DNA from: Escherichia coli
GTDB taxonomy: Bacteria; Pseudomonadota; Gammaproteobacteria; Enterobacterales; Enterobacteriaceae
Assembly (NCBI GenBank): GCA_031701365.1
Contig: GCA_031701365.1_4118.1
Reading direction: 5' to 3' (one strand)
DNA: 64,000 nucleotides
Shown here: positions 27,768 to 28,065 of the stretch, piece after piece
Position numbering within the stretch: the first letter of the stretch is position 1
How the letters are laid out: the number at the start of each line of letters is the position of its first letter
Position numbers and translations under genes: made by a program
The notes under the pieces: model-generated
Told to the model about the DNA's origin: nothing
Seen by the model: only the letters and a program-made list of their open reading frames with translations
The model's database searches: none

Positions 27768-28065
27768 ACTTACATCAAGACGAGAACGTCACTAACCCAT
27801 AGGGTGCACAAATGTAACTGTATAATATTGATCAAAAAATGATCTGATCAATACTTGATCAATTTGCGTAAAGTAGTATAATTCTATGCAGTTGGTTAGA
27901 CGAAAGGTTATGATTAGTAGTGCAAGTGTATAAAAATTTTCATGGTGTATCGTTTCGCACATATGGGGATGAATATGTGGTATCATGTGGATTGGAAAAA
28001 GTAAGAACAAGTAATATTATTGTCGCATTACAGTACTATAGTATTTTTATAATGAGGTTAAAATA

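Follow-up and report, generated by a model that had tools for sequence, protein, structure and literature searches.

The locus, situated among the early genes of a jumbo phage (genus Asteriusvirus), was analyzed within a 64-kb stretch of DNA, referred to here as the window. Over a 1-kb region around the locus, the window is 97–99% identical to Escherichia phages SHEFM2K, CRJP21, SP27 and PBECO4 and about 90% identical to 121Q, its relatives being jumbo myoviruses of the genus Asteriusvirus. Where the ends of a record are resolved, the locus is found about 10–13 kb from the left end and occurs in two copies, which places it inside the direct terminal repeat. This repeat is about 21 kb long in fEgEco12 and vB_Ec-M-J (PMC13070987), and the locus sits about 11 kb into the ~21-kb repeat. 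Its surroundings form a one-directional row of very small early genes, each preceded by a near-consensus sigma-70 promoter. Functions are known for only a minority of the genes of Asteriusvirus and of the related RaK2-like jumbo phages, and the literature search yielded no published experimental account of regulatory sites in either group.

The features of interest are contained in a 332-bp cassette (27735–28066), which carries, in order, a strong sigma-70 promoter P1, a two-hairpin leader, an array of GATC-core sites, a second predicted promoter P2 and a 48-codon gene coupled to a DksA/TraR-like gene (Table 1). An 11-bp direct repeat marks both edges, its left copy lying at the end of a 65-aa gene (27537–27734, stop TAA at 27732–27734). 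In phAPEC6 (L003), a single GTTAAAATAAT copy is present and the 65-aa gene joins the DksA-like gene directly through the same TAATG overlap, so that the DksA-like gene is translationally coupled to whichever gene precedes it. The whole segment is missing in phAPEC6, so that gain or loss affects P1, leader, array, P2 and small gene jointly, as one unit. The cassette is missing from about 10 of 37 related records, array and small gene together, and the cassette-free phages phAPEC6, ph0011 and UE-S1 are absent from the tblastn matches listed for the small protein. The gene behind the cassette had been described as TraR-like in an earlier note on this DNA, made from the sequence alone, and its product does carry the DksA/TraR C4 zinc finger; a factor of this type probably acts on host RNA polymerase. 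The window differs from 121Q in gene content at another place as well, 29008–29368, where its 107-aa ORF (29038–29361) is without an equivalent in locus L002 of 121Q.

Table 1. Features of the cassette and its borders (window coordinates)
Feature	Position	Strand	Details
Left copy of 11-bp direct repeat	27725..27735	+	GTTAAAATAAT; end of 65-aa gene; left cassette edge
Promoter P1	27739..27767	+	TTGACA, 17-nt spacer with CCAGTACTGG, CATAAT; start predicted near 27774-27776
5' leader element of the P1 transcript	27780..27805	+	Hairpin 1, 27780-27791; hairpin 2, 27795-27805
Repeat-family D20 motif	27795..27828	+	RCCCAYNGGGTGC ... TGTAWCT ... TATAAT-like
Sharply bounded divergent block, PBECO4 vs 121Q clades	27813..28010		52-80% identity
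Array of four GATC-core sites, proposed operator	27828..27862		TTGATCAA 27828-27835; ATGATCTG 27839-27846; CTGATCAA 27844-27851; TTGATCAA 27855-27862
Internal promoter P2 (predicted)	27855..27882	+	TTGATC, 16 nt, TATAAT; 10/12; start near 27889
Shine-Dalgarno-like GAAAGG	27903..27908	+	11 nt before GTG start of small gene
Overlooked 48-aa gene	27920..28066	+	MQVYKNFHGVSFRTYGDEYVVSCGLEKVRTSNIIVALQYYSIFIMRLK; GTG start, TAA stop; TAATG overlap with next start
Right copy of direct repeat	28057..28067	+	GTTAAAATAAT; right cassette edge
DksA/TraR-type C4 zinc-finger gene	28066..28323	+	PF01258, E 5e-11; phrog_54

Promoters and a recurrent two-hairpin leader

Promoter P1, already recognized by the earlier note, matches the consensus at 11 of 12 positions, carries a TG in its spacer and belongs to a repeat family (D17) of similar promoters within the window. 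Its predicted transcript opens with two hairpins, GACG-AGAA-CGTC and ACCC-ATA-GGGT, the second of which, together with the bases that follow, makes up the D20 motif; the motif ends in a -10-like TGTATAAT at 27819–27826. Ten copies of D20 occur in the window on both strands (19408, 26111, 27796, 30149, 32747 and 34666 on the plus strand; 17004, 17220, 19476 and 21641 on the minus strand), and the leader arrangement always lies 27–29 nt past a promoter -10 (10 promoters in the window). Its layout consists of a hairpin with a variable stem and an A-rich loop, a short spacer, an invariant CCC-NNN-GGG hairpin and TGC. Hairpin 1 keeps its place among the paralogous copies while its stem changes (GACG/CGUC, UGAG/CUCA, CGC/GCG, AGUC/GACU, GCC/GGC, AGCA/UGCU), which by inspection is covariation. 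The D20 motif is also kept in Erwinia phage Hallingskeid, directly before that phage's own GATCAA array. Judged from these copies, the two-hairpin leader is a general element of one early-transcript class, not a locus-specific one.

A non-coding RNA encoded by the leader, as the earlier note had proposed, was not borne out: nothing was found in Rfam (gathering threshold, E up to 1), the scan returned no tRNA or tmRNA, no covariation was seen over the array, and the recurrent element comprises the first ~30 nt only. The position of the leader after promoters in a terminator-rich region is reminiscent of nut/boxB-type antitermination sites or of 5' stabilizing hairpins. Elsewhere in the window, terminator-like GC hairpins contain a -35 (TTGACT) within their loop or stem and have TATTAT after it (26049–26084, 30100–30135, 32690–32725 and 34605–34640); these resemble T4-type promoter-early stem-loops, and a D20 leader follows each of them.

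The -35 element of P2 (TTGATC) is the fourth site of the array. Its counterpart in the 121Q clade, AAAAAGTACTGGATCAA...GGCGTATAAT, aligns by inspection with the recurrent strong early promoters of the window, AAAAAGTACTTGCAA...GCGTATAAT, with the -35 converted to a GATCAA site. Because this counterpart lines up with the recurrent early promoters, P2 is a credible candidate for a working promoter. GTAC is over-represented in the window (647 occurrences against 410 expected), and the excess falls largely on CAGTACTG in promoter spacers and on AGTACT beside -35 boxes; by this placement, a second palindrome is therefore tied to the early promoters.

Clustering and conservation of the GATC sites

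The sequence at 27828–27862 reads TTGATCAAAAAATGATCTGATCAATACTTGATCAA, exactly as quoted in the earlier note, with four GATC in about 31 bp (27830, 27841, 27846 and 27857). Three of these had been read as TTGATCAA; there are two (27828 and 27855), the others being CTGATCAA and ATGATCTG. The four sites form two pairs with 11-bp spacing within each pair. GATC is depleted in the window overall (144 occurrences where trinucleotide frequencies predict ~225, O/E 0.64), its other 36-bp stretches contain 2 at most, and four GATC fell within 27 bp in 0.5% of trials in which 144 sites were placed uniformly at random (P ~0.005). For comparison, the complete unannotated genome of the relative TH47 (352,450 bp; L017–L024) was assembled. 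It contains 581 GATC against 1243 expected (O/E 0.47), and nowhere except at its homologous locus, which packs five GATC into 70 bp, does an 80-bp stretch of that genome contain 4 or more (P ~0.003). GATC density at the locus is accordingly far from typical in both the window and the TH47 genome, and the clustering at 27828–27862 is real and far from chance. The genome-wide counts indicate that GATC is otherwise selected against in Asteriusvirus genomes. A second tetranucleotide, GCGC, is absent altogether from the 64-kb window (~47 expected) and from the 352-kb TH47 genome (~172 expected), which points to complete avoidance of a restriction activity specific for GCGC.

Site number and placement differ between lineages. 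The 121Q clade has five sites, three of them reaching up to the -35 and two at about -3 and +9. Hallingskeid and contigs L013–L016 have four, one pair upstream of a TTGACT -35 and one pair flanking an AATAAT -10, and L011 has two. Sites thus overlap predicted promoter elements throughout: the -35 of P2 in the window, the -35 and +1 region in 121Q, and the flanks of the -10 in Hallingskeid, L013 and L011. Their positions shift between lineages, tracking the promoter elements, and single sites turn over between clades with the count staying at four or five. Within-pair spacing is 11 bp in all six pairs seen, and the gap between pairs varies. The flanks of the GATC core are conserved as well. Of 15 sites from four independent lineages, 13 have T at -1 and 13 have A at +1; GATCAA is found in 13 of the 15 array sites but in 10% of the other GATC sites of the genome (P ~1e-11), and TGATCA in 11 of the 15 against the same 10% background.

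These regularities bear on the trivial explanation, local duplication of an 11-bp unit that happens to contain GATC and has no function. Short tandem duplication can create phased repeats, and an A-run beside the array is length-polymorphic. Yet the array persists with four or five sites across small proteins that are about 35% identical and across surrounding DNA that cannot be aligned, in genomes where GATC is apparently selected against, and we give this explanation hardly any weight. The A-run lies between sites 2 and 3 in the 121Q clade and measures 4 nt in CMSTMSU, 5 in TH47, 6 in 121Q and 7 in WPEC5, a slippage-type length variation inside a regulatory region (loci L027, L006, L002 and L028).

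The 48-codon gene and its link to the array

The earlier note saw no ORF before 28066 and consequently a 290-nt untranslated leader. The interval, however, contains a conserved 48-codon ORF running from GTG at 27920 to TAA at 28066, and the untranslated stretch downstream of P1 is therefore about 145 nt. Compared with the 121Q clade, in which AAAGG stands 12 nt before a TTG start, the gene shows 19–21 third-position, 10–11 first-position and 7–9 second-position differences, and its frame is open where the other two frames contain 4–8 stops. Its product matches phrog_38664 end to end (E 7e-36). The gene is annotated in PBECO4 and 121Q but was missed or mis-called in many records, which the present annotation corrects. 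A word-indexed protein search with the small protein returned two near-identical proteins only, and the IMG/VR scan for relatives returned 121Q only; distant homologs were reached only by a full HMMER scan and tblastn. These homologs, at 30–38% identity, occur in Hallingskeid, Pectobacterium phage CBB (where the gene is unannotated), Serratia phage BF, the pEa_SNUABM phages and metagenomic contigs. In TH47 (L006), codon 39 of the small gene is TAA instead of TAC, either a pseudogene or a sequencing error, the record being marked UNVERIFIED.

AlphaFold2 modeled the 48-aa protein with four strands and a C-terminal helix (pLDDT 91). Three members of the family matched no Pfam family at E up to 10, AP2 profiles included; the PDB sequence search gave no match below E 0.04, and Foldseek against the PDB returned nothing significant for the model. 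PDB matches to 'Pizza' beta-propellers at E 0.04 were dismissed as noise. Neighbors in BFVD are uncharacterized small phage proteins, and among solved folds an AP2 DNA-binding domain comes closest. As the fold comes without significant PDB or Pfam matches, a DNA-binding role for the small protein is a reasonable reading of the model and not a result in itself. A 59-aa neighbor at 27009–27188 (phrog_9374; counterpart L010 659–838, RaK2 ORF336) shares with the 48-aa protein a G-x-Y-V-V-S-Y-G ... helix pattern and has a weak match to the Hallingskeid homolog (E 0.056); it may represent a paralogous small-protein family of the same early region.

Array and small gene are both present or both absent within Asteriusvirus, and they also occur together in Hallingskeid and L011. 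In CBB, the Eneladusvirus phages and contig L012, homologs of the small gene stand behind plain promoters without the array, so the link, as far as these genomes tell, is not obligate. For a few hundred bases on each side, identity between the window and 121Q is 97–100% (up to 27812) and 92–98% (after about 28010); it falls to 52–80% across the block enclosed by them, the stretch that spans the array, P2 and the two thirds of the small gene that encode the beta sheet. It follows that divergence, or an exchange, has affected array and gene together. The following gene is DksA-like in Asteriusvirus only, and the partner of the array is therefore the small gene rather than the TraR-like gene. Specific control of the TraR-like gene by the array was rejected on these grounds, and also because the phAPEC6 clade simply couples that gene to the 65-aa gene. 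The cassette is absent from some relatives and includes a sharply bounded divergent block, two features that hint at, without demonstrating, its transfer between jumbo phages as a unit of 332 bp.

In Hallingskeid, an HNH endonuclease gene (L004 1014–1442) lies directly upstream of the module of leader, array and small gene. This gene could be related to the sharply bounded divergent block of the Asteriusvirus clades.

Possible readings of the array

Together, the comparisons reveal a conserved, unique array of phased palindromes over a predicted promoter, before a conserved small gene, in an optional cassette. A conserved palindrome of 7–8 bp and pairs placed on one helix face are properties of a protein-binding array, and the reading of bare GATC by Dam or SeqA needs neither. 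We therefore favor, at a probability of roughly 0.5, the reading of the array as the operator of the small-gene cassette, i.e., as a protein-binding control region. The earlier note had mentioned a binding-site array for another factor, and palindrome, 11-bp pairing, promoter overlap and co-inheritance make this the best-supported of the interpretations it offered. A sequence-specific DNA-binding protein would occupy the paired sites cooperatively from one face of the helix, 11 bp being about one turn, and would block RNA polymerase at P2 and possibly also read-through from P1. Such blocking would determine how strongly or when the small gene, and the DksA-like gene coupled to it, are expressed.

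As binder, the 48-aa product encoded in the cassette itself would require the fewest assumptions; it is modeled as four beta strands and a helix, and the circuit would then be one of negative autoregulation. Roughly half of the probability given above goes to this version. The locus would then hold a compact candidate pair of cis and trans elements, array and putative binder, placed before a DksA/TraR-type factor. Known host factors were also considered. FNR has the consensus TTGAT-N4-ATCAA and IHF the consensus WATCAA-N4-TTR; an FNR or IHF site was rejected, as the array spacing by eye does not fit either consensus.

A different role would fall to the GATC sites if they were themselves the functional unit of a Dam/SeqA methylation switch, the signature that the earlier note had seen in the cluster. 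Full methylation of the incoming DNA would let P2 fire, and hemimethylated, replicating DNA would recruit SeqA to the phased pairs and silence P2; in a variant, methylation would compete with a host factor, as with OxyR at agn43/flu. The hosts are Dam-positive enterobacteria, E. coli and Salmonella both having Dam, and phage SHEFM2K, 98.8% identical, encodes a predicted Dam-family methyltransferase (PF05869, E 2e-31). The cluster is a unique enrichment in a GATC-depleted genome, so that this part of the earlier claim stands, and one GATC lies within the -35 of P2. The 11-bp pairs put the GATCs on one helical face, which would suit SeqA, a protein that prefers multiple proximal Dam sites, and Dam-sensitive promoters have precedents in dnaA and flu/OxyR (PMC11741368). 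Left unexplained by a switch of this kind are the conserved T-GATC-AA flanks (T at -1, A at +1 and AA after GATC, 13/15 each). Dam and SeqA read GATC only, and we know of no requirement of either protein for T-GATC-AA flanks. The cluster is moreover dispensable, about 10 of 37 relatives lacking it together with the small gene. On balance we consider a Dam/SeqA switch possible but rather unlikely as the main function.

The Dam/SeqA and operator readings are compatible if methylation tunes the binding of a specific factor. With a GATC core in every site and Dam-type methylases in both host and phage, N6-adenine methylation may modulate binding, although this step is speculative. The fullest version of the operator reading combines a 48-aa transcription factor of AP2 fold, a Dam-site operator of TTGATCAA pairs and methylation-gated binding that would time an early DksA-like host-takeover module; as a whole we regard this combination as improbable. 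If it were true, the cassette would distinguish the fully methylated incoming genome from the hemimethylated replicating one and would act as a simple replication-coupled timer in a virulent phage. Without methylation gating, it would be an ordinary autoregulated early-gene cassette.

The palindromes could also act in RNA, where self-complementary UGAUCA repeats would pair in the P1 transcript and control the stability or translation of the small gene. The minimum free energy fold of 27775–27925 pairs site 1 with site 3 (27845–27851) and site 4 with downstream sequence (z -2.05), and a consensus fold was obtained across six lineages. In silico pairing of the sites is expected, however, because repeated palindromes pair automatically. 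The covariation term is unfavorable (+1.72), few pairs change on both sides, the ribosome-binding site lies outside the helices, and inter-site positions shift between lineages in step with promoter elements. An RNA-level element is thus very unlikely.

Similar repeats elsewhere prompted us to consider whether the sites are iterons of an accessory replication origin or mark the DNA for packaging or recognition. An IMG/VR scan for TGATCAA-N4-TGATC-N10-40-TGATCAA found 68 loci. These lie in unrelated phage contigs and include a large family in which four to seven 11-bp GATCAATCAGT repeats lie inside an O-like replication-initiator gene (phrog_1408, phrog_678; L088 at 3531–3570 and ~25 relatives), and L046 (2816–2912) and L092, in which four or five 20-bp TTGATCAAAAAATGATCA repeats lie between the small and large terminase genes. 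Phased TGATCAA arrays are thus common among phages and serve several DNA-binding machineries, and the pac site of phage P1 is reportedly built from TGATCA hexamers. The present array resembles this pac site and the lambda-type origin iterons in its phased TGATCA(A) repeats; unlike them, it has four or five sites only and coincides with an early promoter and a small gene instead of an initiator gene. The locus lies in the middle of the terminal repeat, not at a terminus or beside the terminase genes. Roughly one in four close relatives has to replicate and package its DNA without it; these cassette-free natural relatives suggest no loss of burst size or DNA synthesis. We consider an iteron or signal function of this kind highly unlikely. 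A packaging site was rejected on position and on dispensability, as shown by its absence from the phAPEC6 clade, and an essential origin on dispensability among the relatives. In the contigs with the TTGATCAAAAAATGATCA repeats, the large terminase gene is split by a LAGLIDADG homing-endonuclease domain, which is probably an intein.

As an operator, the array would belong to a familiar kind of thing, the operator-laden promoter of a small early-gene cassette; its motif, its candidate binder and a possible Dam coupling are the new particulars. Small autoregulators acting on phased repeats include Cox of phage P2 and Apl of phage 186 with their boxes, MetJ with 8-bp metboxes and the omega protein of pSM19035 with its heptads. 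The present array shares with them at least two short repeats about one turn apart over the promoter of a very small protein's operon, as well as site numbers and positions that vary between relatives; it differs in that neither the motif TTGATCAA nor the 48-aa candidate binder, a beta-meander plus helix that matches no Pfam family, is related to theirs. AP2/ERF domains, e.g., the tandem AP2 of PfSIP2 on the bipartite SPE2 element (PDB 6sy0), have three strands against the four modeled here, and the 48-aa protein is a stand-alone chain with neither a sequence-profile match nor Foldseek support. In the Asteriusvirus/PBECO4 promoter literature, no description of the array element or of the function of the small protein family was found, and a full-text search for TTGATCAA returned primers and barcodes, with nothing relevant among the best-ranked matches.

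Among Dam-sensitive systems, phage Mu mom has a GATC cluster that acts with OxyR. The locus resembles the Dam-sensitive clusters at dnaA/SeqA and agn43/flu/OxyR, with three to five GATC within 30–70 bp at a promoter or just before it, in a Dam-bearing enterobacterial or phage setting (PMC11741368). At dnaA, agn43/flu and Mu mom, GATC lies inside the site of a known host protein and the flanks are not repeated, whereas here each GATC centers the same 7–8-bp palindrome in strict 11-bp pairs, and no host-factor match was recognized, FNR and IHF being the consensus sequences compared by eye.

The optional nature of the cassette also invites comparison with the PeSLs of T4-type phages, mobile promoter/stem-loop cassettes that shuffle small early genes. 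Like them, it is an optional small-gene cassette with its own early promoter, bounded by short repeats among tiny early genes; unlike them, its boundaries are formed by the 11-bp GTTAAAATAAT repeat at a stop/start junction and not by a stem-loop. A further repeat in the window, at 16650–16809, consists of about 20 tandem 8-bp units (AAACGGCT / GGATGGCT / AGACGGCT).
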